A DNA stretch of 46,783 nucleotides from an archaeon (GCA_035289485.1 DATDXA010000043.1:1-46783); one strand, 5' to 3'. Counted from the first letter of the stretch, positions 1,272-40,294 are shown. Made by a program: numbers and translations. Notes: generated by a model not told the origin, from the sequence alone.

Positions 1272-3377
1272 ATGGGAAATGAAAGTGCCGCGGCACCTGA
1301 ACCAATTTGGAAGCCGTTTGTTGAAAAGTTCCGGCAGGAGCTTGTGATTGCGGGCTATAGCGAGCGCACAATCAAGATGTATCTTCTTTATGTGGAGGCA
1401 CTGCTCGCATCCGCTAATAAGGACCCGACAAAAATAGAAAGAAGCGATATTGTTTCGTTCCTTGCAAAAAAGAAGGAGAAAGGCTCTGCAAATACAACGC
1501 TTGGCCTTGTTCATGCGGCGCTCACTTTTTTCTTCAAAAACTACCTCAAAATGCCAATAATGGAAGAAATCACAACCCCGAAAAAAGCCAAGCACCTCCC
1601 CGTGGTCCTTACAAAAGATGAGGTGCGCGATCTTCTGAAGGCTACAAAACTTGGAAGAAACAGGCTCATTCTCCAGTTCATTTATTCGTCCGGCGTGCGC
1701 GTAAGTGAAGCCGTGAATATGAAAGCCGATGAAATCAATCTCAAAGAAAGGATGGGCAAAGTAAAATCCGGAAAAGGCGACAAGGACCGCATTATCATCC
1801 TTTCAAAAAACTGGTGCAGGCTTGCAAAAAAATACCTCGACCGCAAGAAAGTGAAAAGCCCCTTTCTCTTTTCAAAGAAAAACGGCAAGCAGCTAACACC
1901 TGACACAGTCCAGAGAATTGTAAGGGATGCGGCGGAGAAGGCAGGGATTCAAAAAGAGGTCACGCCGCACACGCTAAGGCATTGTGTTGAGGCTGGCACA
2001 AGAATTTTTACAGATAACACTATTTTGTCCGCAAAGCAGCTTTACAATAACCCAACCTCAAAAATACAGGGATTTGAATGGGGCACTAATGCACTTGTTA
2101 GCGCCCCTCTTCTTGGAAAAGAAGAGCAGGAGCGAAACGGGCTGCTTGAGATTTGGGCTGATGGGTATTGGATTACCAGTACGCCAGAGCACAGATTCTT
2201 TGTTTCTAGCGCGCACGGGCTTGCAGAAAGCTGCGCAAAAGACCTCAAAGTCGGGGATTATGTGCTTGGTGTAAAAAAAGCCGCCATTGAAAGCAAAGTT
2301 GTTGCGCCGGCTGGATGGTGGAGATTTATTGGTTATATTTTGGGTGATGGGACAGTAAGCCAGAGCCGCCGCGGAGTAATAATCAATGACAAAAACCCAT
2401 ATTTTGCAGAATTTTACCAGCAGTTGGCACAAAAAGAACTTGGCAAAGCGCCTTTTCTCAATCAATGCAAGGGCAGCAACAGTTTCGAACTGGTTTATTA
2501 TTCAAAAGCGTTTGTCGGGCAGCTTAAGGGAATGGGAATGATGGTTAGGGCCCCACAAAAGCGTGTTCCTGAGGAGCTGTTTGGGGCATCCACTGATGAA
2601 ATCTGCGCATTTCTTGCAGGCTACTACGATGCTGATGGAAATGAGGGCGAACCTAAAATGTTTTCCTCCAGCAAGGAACTGCTAAAGGATGTGCAAAGCC
2701 TTTTGCTAAGGCTTGGAATTGATGCCCATTTGTATAAGAGAATAAGGAATGTGAAACTTCCGCAGGGGAAAATAATAAGGCATATAATTTACTATCTTGA
2801 GATAATTCATATGCCGGATCAGTTGCTTTTCCAAAATTTAATTCCCACACAGAAAAAAATCAAGGTAATGCCAGATTTTGTCGGCGAAAAAATACCTGCC
2901 GGCAAAATCATTGCAAAGATGTACCCAAAGATGCTTGCAGTAAGAGGGCTTGTCTATAAATTGCAAACAAAGCACGGGATAAGGCACCTGAAAAGATACG
3001 CCGGCAAAATATTTCCTTCAAGAGAAACACTCCTTGCAATAAGTGAAGAAATTTCAAAAGTGCCGGGTTTTGAAGAGGAGAAAAAAGCGATTGATTCTCT
3101 CACCGACCAAAATTTTAAATGGCTCAGAGTTAAAAAAATCCTTAATGTAGAAGGGGAGAAAAAAGTTTATGATTTTACAGTCGCAGGTACTGAGAATTTC
3201 ATTGCGGATGGATTTGTTGTGCACAATTCCTACGCAACCCACCTCCTCGAAGCCGGCGTGAACATTCGAAACATCCAGGAATTGCTGGGCCATAGCAACC
3301 TAAACACCACCCAGATTTACACCCACGTTTCAACCGAGCAGCTAAAGAAAGTGGAAAGCCCACTGGATAATCTTTGA
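1272..3377 (+). CDS. xerA: XerA-like tyrosine recombinase/integrase interrupted by an intein (about 286-aa extein)
   Basis: [11 protein letters not shown]-terminal domain, SGVRVSEA (catalytic R), [34 protein letters not shown] (catalytic Y). Confidence 0.9.
1983..3227 (+). mobile_element. intein with LAGLIDADG (DOD) homing endonuclease, 415 aa
   Basis: Starts C-VEAGT, ends VYDFTV...[11 protein letters not shown] followed by Ser(+1); internal motifs FIGYILGDG and [10 protein letters not shown]. Confidence 0.95.
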
Positions 3378-7096: not shown

Positions 7097-7153
7097 CGAT
7101 AGGAAATAAGAAAAAAATAGCGGGGAAAGGATTTGAACCTTTGACCTCCGGGT

Positions 7154-7222
7154 CTCTCAAGCATTCGCCCTTTATTTGTTGTATTTTGCCTTTATTCGCT
7201 TATTTAGCCTGATGGCGGCCTT
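7154..7222 (-). other. canonical 37/38 intron of tRNA-iMet (69 nt)
   Basis: BHB: GGG-CTCA-TAA-AG paired with CT-TGAG-AGA-CCC. Confidence 0.9.
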
Positions 7223-7257
7223 TATGAGCCCGGCGGGCACTCCTGGCTGCCCTACCC

Positions 7258-7302
7258 TAATAGATAAACATCACCTAAAATATTGCCGATGATACGTTTA
7301 TT
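7258..7302 (-). other. non-canonical 4/5 acceptor-stem intron of tRNA-iMet (45 nt)
   Basis: Strict BHB: CC-ATAG-CGA-ATAAAC paired with GTTTAT-CTAT-TAG-GG; cutting CG|A and TA|G restores AGCGGGG. Confidence 0.85.
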
Positions 7303-10431: not shown

Positions 10432-10788
10432 CTATTTTATTTCAAAAATTTTAACTTCGTTGCCAGAGTAAGTATACGCATATTTCCTCAACCCCGTTCT
10501 TGTCTTGCTCCACTCAAAAATTCCCCCGTGCAAATTCATGGCATTGTATCCCTGCCGCGCAAGAAAATCCGCTGCGGTCGAACTGCGAGAACCGGTTCTG
10601 CAAAGGCAAATTATCATCTTGTTTTTTGGCAGCTCCGCAAAGCGCCCGGGCAGCTCCGTTAGGTCAATCCATACCATTGGCTCTGCCTTGGTAAAATCCA
10701 CTTCTTCCCTGTGCCGCACATCCAGAAGTACCGCGTCCCCTTTAGAGAGGGCTTTTTCAGCTTCCTGAGAGCTTATCTCCTGCGCCAT
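10432..10788 (-). CDS. rhodanese-like domain protein
   Basis: LLDVR..EE, CRTGSRS active loop, LHGGIFEW; start moved to MAQEIS because the longer ORF overlaps a tRNA. Confidence 0.88.
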   Translation of the reverse strand: MAQEISSQEAEKALSKGDAVLLDVRHREEVDFTKAEPMVWIDLTELPGRFAELPKNKMIICLCRTGSRSSTAADFLARQGYNAMNLHGGIFEWSKTRTGLRKYAYTYSGNEVKIFEIK

Positions 10789-10865
10789 AACCAAGATGCC
10801 TGTTAGTAAGGTTAAAAAACGTGTTTTAGGCGTATTTCTTATTCTTCTAGCTTCTCTTTGTGAAG

Positions 10866-10930
10866 TCAGTTCTATCGAGCCCCCAAAGGGGGCGAAGATG
10901 GAACGCTCCCTTCCAAGGAGCAGCTCGGAG
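10866..10930 (+). repeat. structured dispersed element, copy 1 (abuts tRNA-Lys G1)
   Basis: TCAGTTCTATCGAG...ACGCTCCCTTCC...AGGAGCAGCTCGGAG; the same three blocks occur at 30975-30846 (minus). Confidence 0.8.
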
Positions 10931-11003
10931 GGCCCATAGCTCAGCCTGGTAGAGCAGCGGCCTTTTAAGCCGTGTGTCGAGGGTTCAAATCCCTCTGGGC
11001 TCG
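10930..11003 (+). tRNA. tRNA-Lys(UUU), intronless
   Basis: GGGCCCA/TGGGCTC acceptor stem, GCGGC-CTTTTAA-GCCGT anticodon arm, GGTTCAAATCC T arm. Confidence 0.97.
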
Positions 11004-11147
11004 CCTTTTTCTTTCTCTTAGAAAGAGAAAGAAAAACGCGACCGAAAAAGAAAGAGAAACGAGAAGCGTTCACTGAAAAGAAAAAGTGTGGTGCGAAATG
11101 CGCCTGCAAAGGCATAAATTCGTGAAAGTTTCATATATGGTGTTTTC

Positions 11148-13316
11148 ATGTCTGTTGGAATCGACGAGCTGATGAAGAGCAGGAAGGACAATCTCGAATA
11201 CTTGAGAAAGAAAGGCATTGAGCCGTTTCCATATTCATTTGCGCCCACACACTATTCCGCTGAACTCAAGGATAAATATGAAAGCAAGCTAAAAGCAGGC
11301 GATCACACAAAAGATAAGGCAATAGTCGCAGGCCGCGTGATGGCAAAGAGAAATTTTGGTAAGCTCTATTTTGTTTCCCTTCAAGACCCAAAAGGCAGGA
11401 TTCAGCTTGTTGTTTCAGAAAGTGATGCCGGTTCCGCAGGCGTTGATTTAGTGGACCACTTGGATGTCGGGGATTTTATTGGAGTTGATGGCTTTGTAAT
11501 GAAGACAAAAAAGGGCGAGCTCTCTGTTGGCGCTAAGAAAATAACATTCCTATCAAAAGCCCTAAATCCCTACCCTGAAAAGTTCCACGGCCTAACAGAT
11601 ATTGAAGTTCGTTACAGAAAAAGGCCGCTTGACCTGATAATGAACCCCGAGGTTAAGGAAGTTTTCCTCAAGAGGGCAAAAGTAGTTTCGCTTGTAAGGG
11701 AGTTTCTTGAAAAGAGCAATTTTCTAGAAGTAGAGATTCCTCTTCTCCAGCCAACTTATGGAGGGGCAAATGCAAGGCCATTCATTACAAAATCGCACGC
11801 GTGGAAATCGGATTTTTATCTTTCAATTTCCCCGGAGCTCTACCTGAAGCGGCTGATTATTGGCGGCTATGAGCGCGTATACACTATTTGCAAGAATTTC
11901 CGGAATGAAGATGTTGACAAAACCCACAACCCGGAATTCACGATGATGGAGTGCTACGCAGCGTATTGGGATTACAATGACATGATGAAGCTAACTGAAG
12001 ATTTATTCGCGTTCGTTGCAAAGAGTTTGAACGGCACAACAAAAATAACATACGAGGGCAAGCAGATTGATCTCAAAGCCCCGTGGAAGCGCATGACAAT
12101 GAAGCAGGCGCTCAGAGAATTTGCAAAGCTTGATGTCGACAAATTAACGGATGCCGATTTGAAAAAACTCCTAAAAGAACACGAGCTAGAGGCTGACCCG
12201 TTCAAGCGCGGCCTTGCAATTGCCGAGCTCTTCTCGCATTTATGCGAAGAAAAGCTAATCGCGCCAACTTTCATAATAGACCACCCAAAGGAAACAACTC
12301 CGCTATGCAAGCCAAAGCGCGGCGATCCAACACTCATAGAAAGGTTTGAGCCATTCATCAATGGCTGGGAAGTTGCAAACGCTTACTCTGAACTGAACGA
12401 TCCTGAGTTGCAGGAACAATTTTTCAAAGAGCAGGCAGATCAGGGCAGGGCAAAAGGGGAAACGCACCCGCCTGATGATGATTTCATTGATTCGCTGCGC
12501 TACGGAATGCCGCCAACCGGAGGGCTAGGAATTGGAATAGACCGGCTAGTGATGCTTCTCACGAATCAACCTACAATTAAAGATGTCATTTTCTTTCCAC
12601 AAATGAAGCCAGAGAGAAAGCAGCCATCTGGGACTGCAGATGCACTCAAGCCCGAGCTCGAAGCGATAAAGCCCAACAAGACAAAACTTCTTTTCCAAAA
12701 CGACCCTTACCTAAAAGAATCTTCGGCAACAGTTCGCAGTGTTGAAGGCAATGAAGTCTACCTTGACCAGACAATATTTTTCGCGTTCAGCGGCGGTCAG
12801 AAATCCGATAAAGGCGAAATCAACGGAACAAAACTCAAGGGTGTTTTGCTAAAGGGCGACGACATTGCGCATGTTTTCGATTTCGACCCGAAACTCAAGG
12901 CCGGAGATAAGGTCAGACTCAAACTTGACTGGGACAATCGCTTCAGGACAATGCGCCTGCATTCCGCTTCGCATATTGTCGACCATTTTTTGAACAAGGA
13001 AATTAAAACAGGCGGCACTTCGGGTTCTCTAGTTGACGCTGAAAAGGACAGGAGCACATATCTTGTGAGTGAGAAGATTTCACACGAAGCTTTGAAAAAA
13101 GTTGAAGACGCAACAAATAAATTCATGGCGCAAAAGCACGCAATCAATAGGTTTCCGGACAAGGCAAACCCAAATGTTTTGGTCTGGGAGTGCGAGGGGA
13201 TTGTCCAGCACTGTTCCGGAACGCATGTTCGCAACACTTCTGAAATAGGAAAAATCAAATTAAAGCGCGGGGGCAAGGGCGCCGGAAAAGAACTGGTCGA
13301 AACTTACCTTGTGTAA
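11148..13316 (+). CDS. lysS: class II lysine--tRNA ligase fused to a C-terminal AlaX-like editing domain
   Basis: OB fold, YLSISPELYLKRL, FRNEDVDKTHNPEFTMME, YGMPPTGGLGIGIDRL; then LDQTIFF..SGGQ.SD.G, MRLHSASH, CSGTHV. Confidence 0.95.
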   Translation: MSVGIDELMKSRKDNLEYLRKKGIEPFPYSFAPTHYSAELKDKYESKLKAGDHTKDKAIVAGRVMAKRNFGKLYFVSLQDPKGRIQLVVSESDAGSAGVDLVDHLDVGDFIGVDGFVMKTKKGELSVGAKKITFLSKALNPYPEKFHGLTDIEVRYRKRPLDLIMNPEVKEVFLKRAKVVSLVREFLEKSNFLEVEIPLLQPTYGGANARPFITKSHAWKSDFYLSISPELYLKRLIIGGYERVYTICKNFRNEDVDKTHNPEFTMMECYAAYWDYNDMMKLTEDLFAFVAKSLNGTTKITYEGKQIDLKAPWKRMTMKQALREFAKLDVDKLTDADLKKLLKEHELEADPFKRGLAIAELFSHLCEEKLIAPTFIIDHPKETTPLCKPKRGDPTLIERFEPFINGWEVANAYSELNDPELQEQFFKEQADQGRAKGETHPPDDDFIDSLRYGMPPTGGLGIGIDRLVMLLTNQPTIKDVIFFPQMKPERKQPSGTADALKPELEAIKPNKTKLLFQNDPYLKESSATVRSVEGNEVYLDQTIFFAFSGGQKSDKGEINGTKLKGVLLKGDDIAHVFDFDPKLKAGDKVRLKLDWDNRFRTMRLHSASHIVDHFLNKEIKTGGTSGSLVDAEKDRSTYLVSEKISHEALKKVEDATNKFMAQKHAINRFPDKANPNVLVWECEGIVQHCSGTHVRNTSEIGKIKLKRGGKGAGKELVETYLV

Positions 13317-13474: not shown

Positions 13475-13509
13475 CACCGGCACTGACGTCTCCTTGCAAA
13501 GTTTAATTG
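13475..13509 (+). promoter_or_regulatory. CACCGGCACTGA motif plus TATA-like box upstream of LAGLIDADG gene
   Basis: Motif at 13475-13486, TTTAATTG at 13502; similar arrangement at 14403 and upstream of radA. Confidence 0.55.
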
Positions 13510-14220: not shown

Positions 14221-14370
14221 GGGCCCATAGCTCAGGCTGGTAGAGCACTTGATTCTTTTAAGTTATTTTGCTTAGGGAAGGTGCGGCTCTTAAGGTTGTT
14301 TACCGGCTTGAAAGCTTAGGTAGTGATCGGACAGACCAAGGTGTCGTGGGTTCAAATCCCACTGGGCTCG
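14221..14370 (+). tRNA. tRNA-Lys(CUU) with introns at 30/31 (14252-14285) and 37/38 (14293-14334)
   Basis: Spliced anticodon arm CTTG|G-CTCTTA|A-CCAAG; BHB1 AGAG-CACT-TGA-TTCTT / GGGAA-GGTG-CGG-CTCT; relaxed BHB2; T-rich tail. Confidence 0.9.
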
Positions 14371-14402
14371 CTTTTTTTCTTGTATGATTTTTGCATACTT
14401 GA

Positions 14403-14436
14403 CACCGGCAGTGAAGTGTCCCCAATTCTTTAAAAA
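14403..14436 (+). promoter_or_regulatory. CACCGGCAGTGA motif plus TATA box upstream of LAGLIDADG gene
   Basis: CACCGGCAGTGAAGTGTCC is 16/19 identical to 13475-13493; TTTAAAAA at 14429. Confidence 0.55.
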
Positions 14437-15117: not shown

Positions 15118-15283
15118 GGGGCCGTAGCTCAGCCTGGGAGAGCATCCGACGGATACAAGCGTGCCTTAATGGCTTGTTTTGTCCGGGTGAAGCTGAAGAT
15201 AGAGGCAATGGAGTATCATTGTTTAATCTTCCTTGCTCTCAGCAGTGACCGGTATGTCGCGTGTTCAAATCACGCCGGCCCCA
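15118..15283 (+). tRNA. tRNA-Phe(GAA) with introns at 30/31 (15149-15191) and 37/38 (15199-15247)
   Basis: GGGGCCG/CGGCCCC acceptor stem; spliced arm TCCG|G-CTGAAG|A-CCGGT; BHB1 AG-CATC-CGA-CGGATA / TGTCCG-GGTG-AAG-CT. Confidence 0.9.
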
Positions 15284-15413
15284 CATTTTTCATTTCTTTT
15301 GAAAACTTATGTCCCGCTGTAAGCGGGACGGCCGTATGCGCACCCAACAGACGCAACTGTTGTTTTGCACCCTTTTATATTCATTTTCTTCAAGTATATC
15401 TCTGGTGTTCTTT

Positions 15414-25809: not shown

Positions 25810-26502
25810 TTGCCACTCTATCTTTTTGTGAATTTCAAGACGTATGAACAGGGAACCGGGCAAAATGCCGTTTCACTTTCAAAACTTCTCTCAAGCTTTT
25901 ACACAGGGGAAGTTGAAATAATTCCTGTTGTGCAGGCTTCAGATTTGCACCCGGTTGCTCTTGCATGCCAGCTAAAGCTTTTTGCGCAGCACATAGATCC
26001 CGTTAAATACGGCTCTAATACTGGCAAAATACTTCCAGAGGGCGTGAAAGCCGCAGGCGCATTTGGGACAATTCTAAATCACGCAGAGCACAAGCTCACC
26101 GATTCCATAATCGAAGCATCAATGAAGCGCTGCAGGGAAGCGGGGCTTAAAGTCATGCTCTGCGCAGAAACTCTTGAGCGCGCAAAAATACTTGCAAAAT
26201 TCTCACCGGATTTTATTGCAGTCGAGCCTCCCGAACTGATTGGTGGGGCTGTGAGTGTTAGTAGCGCAAAGCCGGAATTGATTTCAGATTCGGTGAAAGC
26301 AATTGCAAAAATAAATCCAAAAATCATTCCAATCACGGGCGCGGGGATTAAGAATTCGGATGACGTTTCAAAGGCAATCGAGCTTGGAACAAAAGGCGTT
26401 TTTGTGGCTTCAGGAATTGTAAGCGCGCAGGATCAGGAGCATGCGATAAGGCAGATGTTACTTGGGTTTCCAAGCGGCAGAGACGCTGGGAAAATGCCGT
26501 AA
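25810..26502 (+). CDS. tpiA: triosephosphate isomerase (archaeal type)
   Basis: VNFKTY, LNHAEH, AVEPPELIG, GAGI, VASG. Confidence 0.95.
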   Translation: MPLYLFVNFKTYEQGTGQNAVSLSKLLSSFYTGEVEIIPVVQASDLHPVALACQLKLFAQHIDPVKYGSNTGKILPEGVKAAGAFGTILNHAEHKLTDSIIEASMKRCREAGLKVMLCAETLERAKILAKFSPDFIAVEPPELIGGAVSVSSAKPELISDSVKAIAKINPKIIPITGAGIKNSDDVSKAIELGTKGVFVASGIVSAQDQEHAIRQMLLGFPSGRDAGKMP

Positions 26503-26524
26503 ATTTTATTCAACTTACTAGCCG

Positions 26525-29334: not shown

Positions 29335-30834
29335 TTACCCCACCGAGTTTTCCATTTCCATTTCAATTAGCCTGTTTAGCTCAACTGCGTATTCAAGCGG
29401 GAGGGTTTTGGTGAAAGGCTGCATGAACCCAAGAACAATCATTGTAAGAGCCTCGGCTTCGGTGAGCCCTTTTGAAGTAAGATAAAAGATTTGGTCATCG
29501 CCTATTTTTCCAACGCGCGCCTCGTGCGCGATTGTCGCCGTGGGCTCATCTATCTCAACTGACGGGTAAGTATCGGTGCGCGATTCCTTGTCAAGTATTA
29601 AAGCGTCGCACATCACATTGCTCTTTACATTTTTGCACCCCTTCACAACCTTAATGAGGCCGCGATATGAGCTGCGCCCGCCGTCCTTACTAATGCTCTT
29701 TGCTGTAATTGTGCTTGTTGTGTTTGATGCGAGATGTATTATTTTCGCTCCCGCATCCTGATGTTGGCCCTTTCCCGCAAGTGCAACGCTCATAACTTCG
29801 CCTTTTGCGCCCTCTCCCATAAGGTAAATTGCCGGATATTTCATGGTCACTTTGCTACCCAAATTCCCGTCAACCCATTCAACTGTCGCGTTCCTGTATG
29901 CGAAAGCCCTTTTCGTTACAAGGTTGTAAATGTTATTTGCCCAGTTCTGTATTGTTGTGTAGCGCACATTGGCATTGTCCTTTGCAACAACTTCAACAAC
30001 TGCAGAGTGCAGTGATTGTGTTGAGAAGCGTGGCGCCGTGCAACCTTCTACGTAGTGAACCTGCGAGCCCTCATCGGCAATGATTAGCGTGCGCTCAAAC
30101 TGCCCAAAGCTCTCGGCATTTATTCTGAAGTATGCCTGCAGCGGTATTTCAACCTTCACATTCTTTGGGATATAAACAAACGACCCGCCCGACCATACGG
30201 CGCTGTTTAGCGAGGCGAACTTGTTGTCATTTAGCGGAATCACTTTCCCAAAATGCTCCTTTACAATCTCCGGGTATTTTTTGAGCCCCTCATCCATTGA
30301 GAGGAACACAACCCCTTTCTCCTGCAAATCTTTGCGGATGTTGCTATACATCACTTCAGAATCATACTGCGCCTCGACTCCTGCGAGGAATTTTCTTTCG
30401 GCTTCAGGAATGCCAAGCCGCTCAAATGTTTTTTTCACTTCAGCGGGCACTTCTTCCCAGCTTTTCCTGTTTTCCTGCGATGCTTTCATGTAATAAATTA
30501 TTTCGTCAAATTTTATAGGGCTAAGATCCGCGCCCCACTGCGGCATTGGCTTTTCCATGAATGCCTTAAGCGCCTTTAGCCTGAATTCAAGCATCCATTT
30601 GGGCTCATTTTTCATTTCTGAAATTCTGCGCACCGTTTCCTCGCTAAGCCCCTTGTCAAAAATCACTTCGTAGTTTTTGGTGCTGTAGTTGAAATCATAT
30701 TTTTCATAATCCACATTTGAAGCGGCGCGATCCCTTGCCCTGCTCTCATAGGCGCTCGCCGCGTGTGTGCCTGCCGCCTTTTTGTTAACAAGCGTTGCCT
30801 TGGCATGTTCCTGCTTTGCCATTTGCTTACTCAT
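29335..30834 (-). CDS. sufB: Fe-S cluster assembly protein SufB
   Basis: [48 protein letters not shown]. Confidence 0.96.
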
Positions 30835-30845
30835 GCAGTTTCACT

Positions 30846-30975
30846 CTCCGAGCTGCTCCTCCCCAGAGGGGACCTGTCGGTCGGAAGGGAGCGTACTGTC
30901 TCCTTCCAAAGCTGTTGCTTTGGGAGGCCTCCCAGAACTCCGTTCTGGAAGGTCGTTTGGACTCGACAGAACTGA
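30846..30975 (-). repeat. structured dispersed element, copy 2, at the sufC/sufB junction
   Basis: TCAGTTCTGTCGAG...ACGCTCCCTTCC...AGGAGCAGCTCGGAG; flanked by GTGAAACTGCA(A)TGA direct repeats (30979-30993 and 30831-30844). Confidence 0.8.
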
Positions 30976-30978
30976 TTG

Positions 30979-31752
30979 TCATTGCAGTTTCACGCCCGCA
31001 ACCTTCACTCCGGCTTCCTTGAGAATGTCGGCGTATCCTTTCTTTTCGAGCTCTTCAGCTATCTCGATTCCGCCTGATTTGATTATTTTTCCATCATGCA
31101 TTATGTGCACAAAATCTGGCTTTAGGTAGTTTAGTATGCGCTGGTAGTGCGTTATCACAACCGCTCCGAAATCTTTTGAGCGCATCCTGTCCACCGCATT
31201 TGCAACAAGCTTTAGCGAATCAATGTCAAGGCCCGAATCGGTTTCATCAAGTATCGCGATTTTTGGCTTTAGAAGCATCATTTGAAGTATTTCCGCGCGC
31301 TTTTTTTCCCCTCCGGAAAAGCCAACATTTAGTTCGCGCTCTATAAAATCCTCGCCCATGTGCAGCTCCTTTGCCGCCTCCTTAATTTTTTCGCGAAACT
31401 TTACAATGCTCATGGTATCAAGTGGGTAGTGCGCCTTGTATGCCGCGTGCAGGAATTTAACAAAAGGCATTCCGGCTATCTCGAATGGGTACTGGAATGA
31501 GAGAAAGAGCCCCTTTTTGGCGCGCTCATCTGGCGAAGCTGCCATGATGCTCTTGCCATTGAACTTTATATCGCCGCTTTCCACACTGTACTTTGGGTGC
31601 CCCATGATTACGCTTGAGAGCGTGCTTTTTCCCGAGCCATTTGGACCCATTATGGCGTGCACTTCCCCTGTGCGGGCCCTAAAGTTCACACCTTTCAGTA
31701 TCTTCTTGCCTTCTATTCCTGCATGCAGGTTCTCAACTGTGAGTTCGTCCAT
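30979..31752 (-). CDS. sufC: Fe-S cluster assembly ATPase SufC
   Basis: GPNGSGKST, FSGGEKKRAEILQ, LDETDSGLDID. Confidence 0.96.
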   Translation of the reverse strand: MDELTVENLHAGIEGKKILKGVNFRARTGEVHAIMGPNGSGKSTLSSVIMGHPKYSVESGDIKFNGKSIMAASPDERAKKGLFLSFQYPFEIAGMPFVKFLHAAYKAHYPLDTMSIVKFREKIKEAAKELHMGEDFIERELNVGFSGGEKKRAEILQMMLLKPKIAILDETDSGLDIDSLKLVANAVDRMRSKDFGAVVITHYQRILNYLKPDFVHIMHDGKIIKSGGIEIAEELEKKGYADILKEAGVKVAGVKLQ

Positions 31753-31781
31753 AAGCAAAACCCCTTTTTGAAAAGGGAAAA

Positions 31782-38454: not shown

Positions 38455-38486
38455 TTTATAAATAATCTTAGGGTTCGGTGCCGGTG
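38455..38486 (-). promoter_or_regulatory. radA promoter: CACCGGCACCGA motif plus TTTATAAA TATA box
   Basis: Minus strand CACCGGCACCGA (38486-38475), 12 nt upstream of TTTATAAA (38462-38455). Confidence 0.55.
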
Positions 38487-39460: not shown

Positions 39461-40294
39461 TCAGCGCATTTCACCATTTTCCAATTTTCTTATGCTTGCT
39501 CCCCTTCCAAGGTGCAGCTCAATGTTCCCGTGGTTTTCCTTAACATAAGCGCCCTCTATGCGCACCTTTTCATCCTCACCTATTTCCTCGATTTTCTCGC
39601 ACGCTTCATTCCACGCTGTTGCGCGCATCTCTTCCATTCCCTTTGCAATTATAAAATTCATGACTTTTCCTTTTCCGCGGTCGTTTTCCCAATCCTTTGC
39701 GGGAAAAATGGTTTTTATCATTGCTTCAACATTCACCTCATTCATCCCGTGCTCCAACTCCGAAATCGGAGTGAGTTTCTTTTCAGGCTCTGGTATTGCA
39801 ATTCCCTGCGCCGCGGAAATTTCGCTGTTATAATTCAAGTTGAGTTGCAGAACTCCGTTATATGAAGACACGGAGCAGTTCGCAAGCTTTATTGCAGATA
39901 TTTTTTCCCCTCCGAGCTCGGAAAATTTCTTGATGTCCTTGTTCCAGAGCGTTGCGCGTATTTCCCCTGTCCCGTCTATGAGTATAATATTTTGCAGCTC
40001 CCCGCTCTTCCCATTTTTCTCATAGCTTTTTGATGGGAACGCCCTTTTCACGCGCGCAACAATATCAATGTTATTCATCCCTTCCTTAAGTGAAATTATC
40101 CGCGTCTCCTCGCGTATTGCGCCTTCTGTTTGAACCCCGAGCTCTTTTGCAATCATGAATGCAGCGCCCTCTTCTGTTAGAAGCCCCGAGAATTTTTCCT
40201 TTTTATCATCAATTAGCTTTTGCACTTCCTCTGTGCTCTTGCCGCTTCGCGACATTATGTATTCCCTTAGCTTTTCAGTTCCACCAGCAAACAT
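39461..40294 (-). CDS. rpa: replication protein A (two OB folds)
   Basis: GLLTEEGAAFMIAKELGV N-domain, DGTGEIRATLWN, MRATAWNE; start uncertain. Confidence 0.88.
   Translation of the reverse strand: MFAGGTEKLREYIMSRSGKSTEEVQKLIDDKKEKFSGLLTEEGAAFMIAKELGVQTEGAIREETRIISLKEGMNNIDIVARVKRAFPSKSYEKNGKSGELQNIILIDGTGEIRATLWNKDIKKFSELGGEKISAIKLANCSVSSYNGVLQLNLNYNSEISAAQGIAIPEPEKKLTPISELEHGMNEVNVEAMIKTIFPAKDWENDRGKGKVMNFIIAKGMEEMRATAWNEACEKIEEIGEDEKVRIEGAYVKENHGNIELHLGRGASIRKLENGEMR

Follow-up and report, generated by a model that had tools for sequence, protein, structure and literature searches.

A dispersed repeat with a covarying pseudoknot before tRNA-Lys and at gene junctions of a DPANN archaeon: a candidate mobile element

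We analysed a stretch of 46,783 nucleotides from an archaeal genome (GCA_035289485.1, DATDXA010000043.1:1-46783), referred to here as the window. It contains a gene for tRNA-Lys(UUU), with the lysine-tRNA ligase gene on its 3' side (11148-13316), and the tRNA gene is directly preceded by 65 bases at 10866-10930 that read TCAGTTCTATCGAG CCCCCAAAGGGGG CGAAGATGGAAC GCTCCCTTCCAAGGAGCAGCTCGGAG. Three blocks of this sequence (10866-10879, 10903-10914 and 10916-10930, plus strand) had been predicted to recur 20 kb away. Each was found exactly twice in the 46,783-base window, where shuffles lead to an expectation of 0-0.12, and the second occurrences are on the minus strand, at 30962-30975, 30883-30894 and 30846-30860, respectively. 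The recurrence of the three blocks is real and not a product of chance. Since the tRNA starts at 10930, the final G of the third block is also G1 of the tRNA, as had originally been read. The second copy is located between an ORF for SufC (30979-31758, minus strand, 333 bits with NCBIfam) and an ORF for SufB (29335-30834, minus strand, 706 bits) and is in the sense orientation of both, which agrees with the orientation predicted for it within the suf operon. The features of both copies are collected in Table 1.

Table 1. Features of the element and its surroundings in the window (A1 and A2 are the alignments described in the text)
Feature	Position	Strand	Basis or remark
TATA box TTAAAAAA of the tRNA-Lys promoter	10812-10819	+	Upstream regions compared: G000, G001, G002, G004, G005, G012
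5' leader of copy 1, TTTGTGAAGTCA; family consensus about nnTGnGAAGCCA	10857-10868	+	A1 alignment columns 1-12
Hairpin P1, copy 1	10869-10904	+	A1 and A2 pairing; minimum-free-energy fold
H-type pseudoknot, copy 1	10905-10931	+	A1 and A2 pairing; pseudoknot finder
tRNA-Lys(UUU)	10930-11005	+	ARAGORN; Rfam tRNA, 69 bits; its 5' end is the element's 3' boundary
Copy 2, long form	30846-30975	-	Folds; covariance-model match 30844-30983
Upstream copy of the duplicated sufC/sufB junction, GTGAAACTGCAATGA	30979-30993	-	Flank-repeat score
Downstream copy of the duplicated sufC/sufB junction, GTGAAACTGCATGA	30831-30844	-	Holds the sufB start codon (30834-30832)

The genome belongs to the DPANN archaea and comprises 1,156,387 bases in 64 contigs, with a completeness of 90%. 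The original prediction had treated the two copies as a homologous pair, and searches of the genome and its relatives enlarged this pair considerably. A search of the assembly with copy 1 gave further partial matches, and BLAST and nhmmer together led to approximately 30 loci. A covariance model (R1) was built from 19 short-form copies, with stem S1 of the fold described below left out of the model. In the same genome, R1 gave 41 matches at E<=1, 24 of these at E<1e-9. At E<=0.001, matches were present in 28 of 41 genomes, this one included, namely in 19 of 22 relatives from the same family and in 8 of 18 single representatives of the other families of the order, all genomes being metagenome or single-cell assemblies and the relatives not being independent of one another. 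The number of matches at this threshold ranges from 0 to 28 in the relatives (28 in G012, 18 in G001 and 16 in G013) and is 30 in the genome under study. In a sample of the phylum, 32 of 151 genomes had a match at E<=1e-5, and these were concentrated in few families (15/19 in f1 and 6/7 in f2, against 0/15 in f3 and 0/17 in f22). The element is therefore a dispersed family with multiple copies.

A degenerate pattern of the top of hairpin P1 was found in 34 stretches of a collection of named species, with 30 R1 matches within them. Full-length R1 matches (E below 1e-3) in these named records lie in archaeal metagenome-assembled genomes labelled Candidatus Iainarchaeum, Candidatus Diapherotrites, "uncultured archaeon" or "archaeon", with one labelled "Altiarchaeales" (30.8 bits). 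Most of the bacterial pattern matches gave no R1 match and two gave weak ones (E about 1e-3), while R1 had no match on the two viral contigs carrying the pattern. Searching Rfam 15 with the whole window at the gathering threshold returned just two tRNA matches, and at E up to 10 over 10780-11020 and 30780-31040 the element scored at most 18 bits, against gathering scores of 70-105. It had been said to belong to no assignable family, and the Rfam results bear this out. In literature searches, within the opening lines of abstracts, we found no published description of the pseudoknot repeat, and passages of a report on a Diapherotrite (PMC5905446) treat transposase-bearing transposons only. The element appears to be a previously undescribed small structured repeat, which behaves like a genomic parasite tolerated only in certain places.

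All copies share the same order of parts, which is a leader, the hairpin P1 and a pseudoknot. The leader is approximately 12 nt long and often reads TGCGAAGCA or TGTGAAG. P1 has approximately 8 bp and a near-invariant CGAG...CGAAG that forms a 2x3 internal loop, with GA opposite GAA, and above this loop stands an apical stem-loop of variable length. The pseudoknot directly follows P1 and consists of S1a (GCUC and variants), 0-3 nt, S2a, S1b, 2-3 nt and S2b, with an S1 of 4-5 bp and an S2 of 6-8 bp that can stack on one another; its loops, of 0-3 nt, are not conserved, and the sequence of S2 is hypervariable. Copies measure 60-130 nt. Long forms have a branched insert in the apex of P1 and a hairpin between S2a and S1b, and the folds thus place the length differences in inserted hairpins, where they had been predicted to fall.

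In copy 1, the P1 stem comprises 8 bp (10869-10876 with 10897-10904), followed by the conserved internal loop of GA (10877-10878) and GAA (10894-10896) and by the apical stem-loop (10879-10893). S1 pairs 10905-10908 with 10918-10921. S2, which contains a single A·C mismatch, pairs 10910-10917 with 10924-10931, and its final two positions are G1 and G2 of tRNA-Lys. The covariance model matches copy 1 at 10857-10932 with 75.7 bits, and the fold has an energy of -32 kcal/mol (z = -4.1). In copy 2, P1 pairs 30972-30965 with 30900-30893 and has the branched insert, S1 pairs 30892-30888 with 30859-30855, and S2 pairs 30886-30881 with 30851-30846 around a hairpin insert at 30880-30860. Its covariance-model score is low (18.8 bits, E 0.06) because of these inserts.

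The fold is maintained by compensatory changes. In alignment A1 (19 copies), the four helices are 87.1% paired, compared to 69.3% in shuffles (none of 500 as high) and 32-46% when the partners are slid, and 19 of 24 pairs show compensatory changes (6/8 in P1, 3/4 in S1 and 7/8 in S2), P1 being 88.7% and S1 98.7% paired. Alignment A2 (31 copies from relatives) is 86.5% paired against 63.2% in shuffles, with compensatory changes in 22 of 24 pairs (8/8 in P1, which is 91.9% paired, 3/4 in S1 and 8/8 in S2); S1 is still 92.2% paired here, even though A2 was aligned to a model without S1. Since the aligned copies are related to one another, these pairing figures are not probabilities, and the fold is convincing because of the controls with slid partners and the variety of pair types seen in single columns. 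For example, one S1 pair occurs as UA 13 times, as GC 9 times and as CG 4 times, and the six central pairs of S2 are rich in compensatory changes.

A conserved structured element had been proposed, and its fold was upheld by covariation over further copies, with the exception of the pseudoknot as it had been drawn. The helix GTTCTATC/GATGGAAC, reported to covary with GTTCTGTC/GACAGTAC in copy 2, corresponds to P1 of the family alignment, and the conserved GCTCC/GGAGC corresponds to stem S1. The proposed pairing of GAGY with the terminal GCTC, however, is 57.8% paired against 59.9% in shuffles and shows no compensatory pairs. The pseudoknot that the alignments support is formed instead by S1 (GCUC/GAGC) interleaved with S2 (CUUCCAAG/CUCGGAGG). 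These are two interleaved stems, each with compensatory changes, as in an H-type pseudoknot, and an independent pseudoknot finder returned this arrangement immediately 3' of P1 in most copies.

Known motifs and a coding role for the leader were also considered. A kink-turn (the site bound by L7Ae, in which tandem sheared G·A pairs come after a bulge of three nucleotides, in register with the flanking stems) seems unlikely on reading the alignments, as its register would move P1 by two positions and conflict with the covarying P1; the covarying register has a 2x3 GA/GAA loop without the bulge-plus-NC-stem geometry of a kink-turn. None of the C/D-box, H/ACA, hammerhead and HDV-like layouts fits when compared by eye with their consensus features. 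The leader was rejected as the start codon of a conserved peptide, since NTG was read in differing frames among the copies.

The kinds of mismatch within the helices are informative about selection on single copies. In an RNA kept by purifying selection at every locus, G·U would be expected to prevail over A·C, whereas the neutral decay of a helix that was once perfect yields equal numbers; the counts of the two among non-Watson-Crick cells are nearly equal (15 against 16 and 24 against 30). The individual copies therefore appear to be decaying neutrally. The equality is compatible with either RNA or single-stranded DNA as the selected form.

Four of the 43 predicted tRNAs (Lys-UUU, Trp-CCA, Ile-UAU and Leu-GAG) have a copy that ends at +1, by which we mean that the final pseudoknot pair lies within two bases of tRNA +1; the other 39 have no element. 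The link to tRNA-Ile(UAU) recurs in G004 and G009 and that to tRNA-Trp in G007, and both links are shared by different genera. Among 29 loci for tRNA-Lys(UUU) scanned in relatives, R1 matched two (G005 and G021), and in G017 a diverged relative of the element with the same leader was found by reading. The insert-free relatives G001, G002, G004 and G012 have a TATA box (GTTAAAAAAC) approximately 27 nt before tRNA-Lys +1, and their tRNA-Lys gene is therefore almost leaderless. In the window, this ancestral TATA box is retained 37 nt upstream of the element, and copy 1 sits between the box and the tRNA. The element had been thought to occupy the usual position of the promoter; it does lie directly before the tRNA, but it has not replaced the TATA box.

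At the usual archaeal spacing from TATA box to start, transcription should begin near 10840-10845 and read through copy 1. No AT-rich box was found inside the element, so the tRNA-Lys is probably transcribed with the element as a leader of approximately 90 nt. RNase P RNA is present in the genome (91.6 bits), and RNase P would take this leader off pre-tRNA-Lys; because of its presence, a dedicated role as a processing signal, one of the roles originally suggested, is not needed. Other, unrelated inserts of approximately 100 nt are found at the same place before tRNA-Lys in G003 and G006, and the tRNA leader therefore looks like a general safe harbour. Placement at +1 of several independent tRNAs nonetheless exceeds what a short native leader alone explains, and it may arise from targeting, from microhomology with the G-rich tRNA start or from selection for a defined 3' end of the RNA.

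At the sufC/sufB locus, sufC ends within the upstream copy of the duplicated junction, with its stop codon at 30981-30979. An ATG at 30982-30980 overlaps this stop and begins an ORF of 51 codons that runs through copy 2. The flank-repeat score is 23, which is no lower than the 99th percentile among 2000 random controls. The junction is present once in relatives, for example as GGGAGTGAAACTAGCATGACAG in L018, and was without the element in all 11 relatives read, including 6 of the same genus. In all 11, the stop codon of sufC either overlaps the start codon of sufB or is separated from it by a few bases. Because the junction is duplicated around copy 2, sufC retains its stop and sufB retains its start. 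The order of the genes is unaltered, and the duplicate of 14-15 nt is near-identical. Over 30400-31400, contigs from four DNA runs enter copy 2 from both sides and break there, and no element-free joint was seen among them. Twenty sequencing runs are listed (19 DNA and 1 RNA), and in the RNA run only 0.05 of the words are present.

Other orthologous sites likewise carry a copy in some genomes and none in others, and some copies are flanked by duplications of a gene junction. The flanks of 40 full-length matches were compared by their best local match against 2000 random controls; 9 copies reached the 95th percentile and 8 the 99th, and the remaining 31 showed no significant flank repeat. The duplications measure approximately 8-46 nt and restore stop, Shine-Dalgarno (SD) and start signals. 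Where the repeats are long and clearly significant, the downstream one begins 0-1 nt past the pseudoknot (in one case at +5), and the upstream one ends 7-34 nt ahead of P1. For example, the junction at C38:6551 is empty in G002, G004 and G011 and is occupied in G000 with an 18-nt duplication. In G001 and G003, other family members occupy this site without a duplication and with the pseudoknot abutting the ATG, so that three different members lie at one junction in G000, G001 and G003. Similarly, the C57 junction is empty in G001 and G004 and occupied in G000 and G005, with a duplication of approximately 46-50 nt, and the elements of G000 and G005 differ in sequence. Over 58 nt, the G000 copy at C57 and the copy at C38:6551 share 98% identity, which points to recent copying or to gene conversion between copies. 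The different members found at one site in different genomes could equally reflect gene conversion instead of repeated insertion. At several junctions there is a hint of microhomology between the G-rich 3' end of the element and the target, which is inseparable from an extension of stem S2.

Of the copies that lie between co-directional genes, 23 run in the sense and 7 in the antisense orientation; the gene calls behind these counts are crude (ORFs of at least 110 codons plus tRNAs), and by reading at least 2 of the 7 antisense copies depend on a spurious antisense ORF. At duplicated junctions, an ORF runs from the duplicated ATG at the upstream stop through the element to the downstream start or just beyond it, as in all four junction copies examined (sufC/sufB, C57, C38:6551 and C9). 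Across all copies, 91 of 120 sense frames are open (76%) and 98 of 120 antisense frames (82%), compared to 54% in shuffles. Selection for translatability gains no support from these counts, as antisense frames are open as often as sense frames. The 3' strands of the pseudoknot resemble SD sequences (GGAG, GGAGGTG), and several copies have a start codon within 0-10 nt; by reading, a start codon lies at most 15 nt after the pseudoknot in approximately 11 of 40 copies. An ATG directly follows the pseudoknot in G001, G003, C22:27375 and C64:1615. The genes downstream of the copies are unrelated to one another, and there are also copies opposite convergent genes and copies placed before promoters.

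We also searched for an enzyme that might mobilise the element. Reverse transcriptase (PF00078) was found in none of the 23 genomes of the family (this genome and 22 relatives, with completeness of 63-95%), and five more distant genomes had matches. The TnpB domain was not found in the genome under study. The Y1 transposase (PF01797) gave one partial match at a contig end in this genome and was present in 8 of 22 family relatives; it was not found in G012, G001 and G013, genomes that are incomplete and have 28, 18 and 16 copies. Its presence is unrelated to copy number, and only 1 of 18 Y1 loci had an element within the fetched stretch. DDE transposases and tyrosine recombinases are present, although not near copies, and the two DDE_Tnp_1 genes of this genome lie on contigs without R1 matches. 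Terminal inverted repeats were not found, as in A1 and A2 the 5' terminal nnTGCGAAGCA shows no complementarity to the 3' terminus, formed by the 3' strand of S2 (for example GTCGGAG). With neither terminal inverted repeats nor a target duplication of fixed length, the element is therefore not a classical MITE. Nor does it appear to be of the REP/REPIN or IS200/IS605 type, whose members are moved by a co-occurring Y1 transposase or RAYT and insert without duplicating the target, as no linked Y1 enzyme was found and duplications are present.

On balance, we favour the explanation that the 65 bases before tRNA-Lys are a copy of a dispersed, non-autonomous mobile element that is defined by its structure and belongs to the DPANN Iainarchaeum/Diapherotrites group. 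Of the roles offered in the original prediction (ribozyme, processing signal or small mobile element), it is mobility that the multiple copies, the polymorphism of sites and the flank duplications argue for, and the ribozyme found no support. Because the non-Watson-Crick cells resemble neutral decay, the fold would be needed for the copying of active lineages, as RNA or single-stranded DNA, and not for a host function at each site. Copies would then survive only in slots where they are harmless. One such slot would lie between the start site and tRNA +1, where the element would be transcribed as a 5' leader of approximately 90 nt and removed by RNase P, releasing an RNA with its 3' end at the pseudoknot terminus. 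The other would be the tight gene junction, where the duplicated segment with stop, SD and start may keep the downstream gene translatable, often by way of a short bridging ORF; alternatively, this may be done by the 3' strands of the pseudoknot, which are rich in purines and resemble SD sequences (GGAG, GGAGGTG). As for the mechanism, uncoordinated nicking or template switching would fit better than a classical transposase, since the duplications vary and the 3' boundary is sharp while the 5' boundary is fuzzy.

A more specific form of mobility, which we consider unlikely, is that the element is a SINE-like archaeal element without a recognisable reverse transcriptase. The tRNA-linked copies would in that case be the source genes, transcribed from the tRNA promoter, and the cut by RNase P at tRNA +1 would free an RNA that ends exactly at the pseudoknot. 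Template switching or some enzyme would next insert this folded RNA, or single-stranded DNA copied from it, into G-rich sites such as SD sequences and tRNA 5' ends, with duplications of variable length. If true, an RNA structure and a host RNA-processing enzyme would together define a new route of mobility.

Explanations other than mobility have to be weighed against these findings. The element may be a cis-acting RNA module that serves the host, with a GA/GAA loop that binds a protein. Hairpin and pseudoknot would then form a leader or intercistronic element that sets the stability, processing or translational coupling of transcripts and spreads by recombination because it is useful. The tRNA-Ile(UAU) and tRNA-Trp links common to several genera, together with a CGAG...CGAAG loop that is near-invariant while the helices vary, could reflect such a host function, and the same can be said of the SD-like 3' strands with a start codon within 15 nt in approximately 11 of 40 copies, of the ORFs that link the upstream stop to the downstream start in all four junction copies inspected and of the prevailing sense orientation (23 against 7). 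We nevertheless regard a host module as somewhat unlikely, given a patchy distribution of 0-28 copies among close relatives and the fact that the same essential junctions function without the element in most of them. The downstream genes are also unrelated, with some copies at convergent genes or upstream of promoters, G·U is no commoner than A·C, and antisense frames are open as often as sense frames (98/120 against 91/120). A riboswitch-like pseudoknot that hides the SD sequence in response to a ligand or to temperature is the least probable reading and seems scarcely credible: S1 or S2 does pair a CU-rich strand resembling an anti-SD with GGAG or GGAGGTG, and an ATG directly follows the pseudoknot in the four cases named above, but the downstream genes have no common function and include tRNAs, the loops of 0-3 nt are not conserved, S2 is hypervariable and Rfam gave no match.

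The duplicated gene ends raise the question of recombination. By reading, the duplicates at six loci differ by 17 synonymous and 7 non-synonymous codon changes, including a TCC-to-AGC switch of a serine codon in the tail of a pilin-like gene on contig C5. Since fewer synonymous differences would be expected if a target had simply been duplicated and one copy had then drifted as non-coding DNA, the second copy is either translated or derived from a diverged allele by recombination. The copies could thus be scars or hot spots at which DNA of diverged relatives was joined by one-sided homologous and illegitimate recombination, adding a differently coded gene end, and in addition the gene after the C57 duplicate differs between G000, G005 and G001/G004, and the copies are patchworks whose individual modules recur in various others. 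What such joining leaves unexplained is why one conserved, covarying fold lies at every junction, why 31 of 40 copies have no duplicate and why copies are placed at tRNA +1, and the unaltered sufC/sufB gene order with its near-identical duplicate of 14-15 nt also speaks against it. As a full account we consider recombination quite unlikely, although it may act together with mobility. It is very improbable that the element is a self-cleaving ribozyme, or a catalytic RNA of another kind, by which transcripts are trimmed at the end of the element, for example to make a tRNA 5' end. The compact pseudoknot fold with few invariant unpaired nucleotides and the coincidence of the 3' end with the 5' end of a mature RNA in all four tRNA-linked copies of this genome would suit a ribozyme; on the other hand, no Rfam ribozyme matched even at E up to 10, a substitute for RNase P is superfluous where RNase P RNA is present, 39 of 43 tRNAs have no element, the mismatches look neutral and most copies are not beside an RNA end.

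DPANN archaea have among the smallest and most tightly packed genomes known, and approximately 40 folded repeats are found here at tRNA starts and overlapping stop/start junctions despite such compactness. If our preferred reading as a mobile element holds, a covarying pseudoknot, and not inverted repeats, would be the unit of a mobile-element family, and a parasite would be able to live in a compact genome by means of slots cleaned by RNase P, duplicated junctions and possibly an SD-like strand. It would also account for the duplicated gene tail at the pilin locus on C5, which was checked. Model R1 can be used directly to annotate such genomes, avoiding calls of spurious small ORFs.

Several known systems resemble the element in part. 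SINEs and target-primed reverse transcription share with it the duplications of variable length, the sharp 3' and ragged 5' boundaries, the fixed orientation and the link to tRNA genes, and RNase P, an enzyme of RNA processing, could be what sets its 3' end. In contrast to SINEs, however, it lies before a tRNA and is not derived from one, it has no A-rich tail, and no reverse transcriptase was found in the 23 family genomes. The acceptor/T minihelix of a tRNA has 12 bp, and plant-virus tRNA-like structures have a pseudoknotted mimic of the acceptor arm. The stacked stems of the element's pseudoknot span approximately 9-13 bp, and the unit ends with the 3'-most strand. This is a structural analogy only; the element differs in having no CCA end or other tRNA-like arms and in standing 5' of a real tRNA. 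Like homing elements with a re-coded, displaced gene end, the element is inserted at a boundary where a second, differently coded coding end is kept, but homing elements (LAGLIDADG) encode their own endonuclease and the pseudoknot element encodes nothing recognisable.

MIRUs (mycobacterial interspersed repetitive units) are small non-coding intergenic units that lie within operons in sense orientation, with short ORFs through the unit that overlap the upstream stop and the downstream start; they typically form tandem arrays and have no defined pseudoknot fold. The element shows a possible likeness of features to them in its sense orientation and in the bridging ORFs at sufC/sufB, C57, C38:6551 and C9, though open frames are common on both strands of all copies. 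It differs in that its copies are nearly always single, have a covarying hairpin and an H-type pseudoknot, are found also at tRNA 5' ends and are archaeal. Other small repeats, such as REP/BIME-REPIN, BOX, ERIC, Correia, RUP, the Rickettsia palindromic elements (RPEs) and archaeal MITEs, are likewise short, multi-copy and non-coding with a stable fold, and as with the small bacterial repeats the copy number of the element varies between close relatives and copies are tolerated inside transcription units. Unlike the small bacterial repeats and MITEs, the element has no terminal inverted repeats, no fixed target duplication and no linked RAYT or IS partner, and unlike small palindromic repeats it has an asymmetric pseudoknot as its core and flank duplications of 8-46 nt that restore coding ends. 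It is nevertheless modular like BOX, and one copy (C22:7597) lies in frame within an ORF, as RPEs do.

In two relatives of the same genus (G003, tRNA-Lys locus L096, and G006, locus L102), inserts of about 100 nt lie between the conserved TATA box and the first nucleotide of tRNA-Lys. These are other inserts than the element, and their sequences are unrelated. More than one kind of insert is thus found at the tRNA-Lys leader, which is therefore a recurrent landing site. Downstream of tRNA-Lys, the next gene is that of a class II lysine-tRNA ligase whose C-terminus (residues 512-718) is an AlaXM-type alanyl-tRNA editing domain (143 bits), an unusual fusion. We also noted that this fusion gene adjoins its cognate tRNA.

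Elsewhere in the genome, a pilin-like gene ends in VQNRDSVISSLMG*, and a second version of this tail, VQNRDSVISSLIS*, is found 150 nt downstream with six codons changed synonymously, one of them from TCC to AGC. Between the two tails there is one member of the element family, and another comes after both; the entire stretch stays in the gene's frame. Another open reading frame has a copy of the element inside it: its first 12 codons come before 26 codons that the element supplies in frame, and after these codons 2-9 appear once more. The arrangement is similar to that of the palindromic elements of Rickettsia, which are likewise in frame. The contig with the tRNA-Leu-linked copy also carries, at its end and 6 kb from that copy, a partial Y1 transposase of the IS200 type; the Y1 genes of relatives, too, are mostly located at contig ends. 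Within the window, 19 nt at 39502-39520 (+) match the pseudoknot part of the tRNA-Lys copy at 18 of 19 positions (E 0.05), a likeness that is probably due to chance or to a decayed fragment.

Features in the window and on other contigs of the same genome
Feature	Location	Strand	Remark
Tyrosine-recombinase domain, split, in one 703-codon open frame	1605-3335	+	profile match
tRNA-Met(cat), long intron	7117-7262	-	ARAGORN with introns
Class II lysine-tRNA ligase	11148-13316	+	648 bits; next after tRNA-Lys
Motif close to GCACCGGCACCGAACCCTG	~13475-13495	+	upstream of TATA-like box
tRNA-Phe(aaa)?, long intron	14221-14371	+	ARAGORN with introns; anticodon doubtful
Motif close to GCACCGGCACCGAACCCTG	14403-14423	+	upstream of TATA-like box
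tRNA-Ala(tgc), long intron	15118-15284	+	ARAGORN with introns
Motif close to GCACCGGCACCGAACCCTG	~38466-38486	-	upstream of TATA-like box
Pilin-like gene, two tails	C5:26328-26370 and 26478-26520		outside window
Open reading frame with element copy inside	C22:7573-8064		outside window
Y1 transposase, IS200-type, partial	C40:8017-8184		outside window; contig end

Besides its three places in the window, the GCACCGGCACCGAACCCTG-like motif occurs at more than 30 others in the genome and lies about 8-12 nt 5' of the TATA-like boxes of many genes. Some occurrences of the motif have the palindrome GTATGGnTTTnCCATAC in front of them, and four copies of the element lie directly 5' of the motif. The motif looks like a genome-wide promoter-proximal site.

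The tyrosine-recombinase domain is in two pieces, which match positions 2-135 and positions 135-170 of the profile and are separated by about 1.2 kb, an arrangement that suggests an intein or another in-frame insert. Among the intron-containing tRNAs, the putative tRNA-Phe is also matched by the Rfam tRNA family, at 14221-14370 (44.5 bits).
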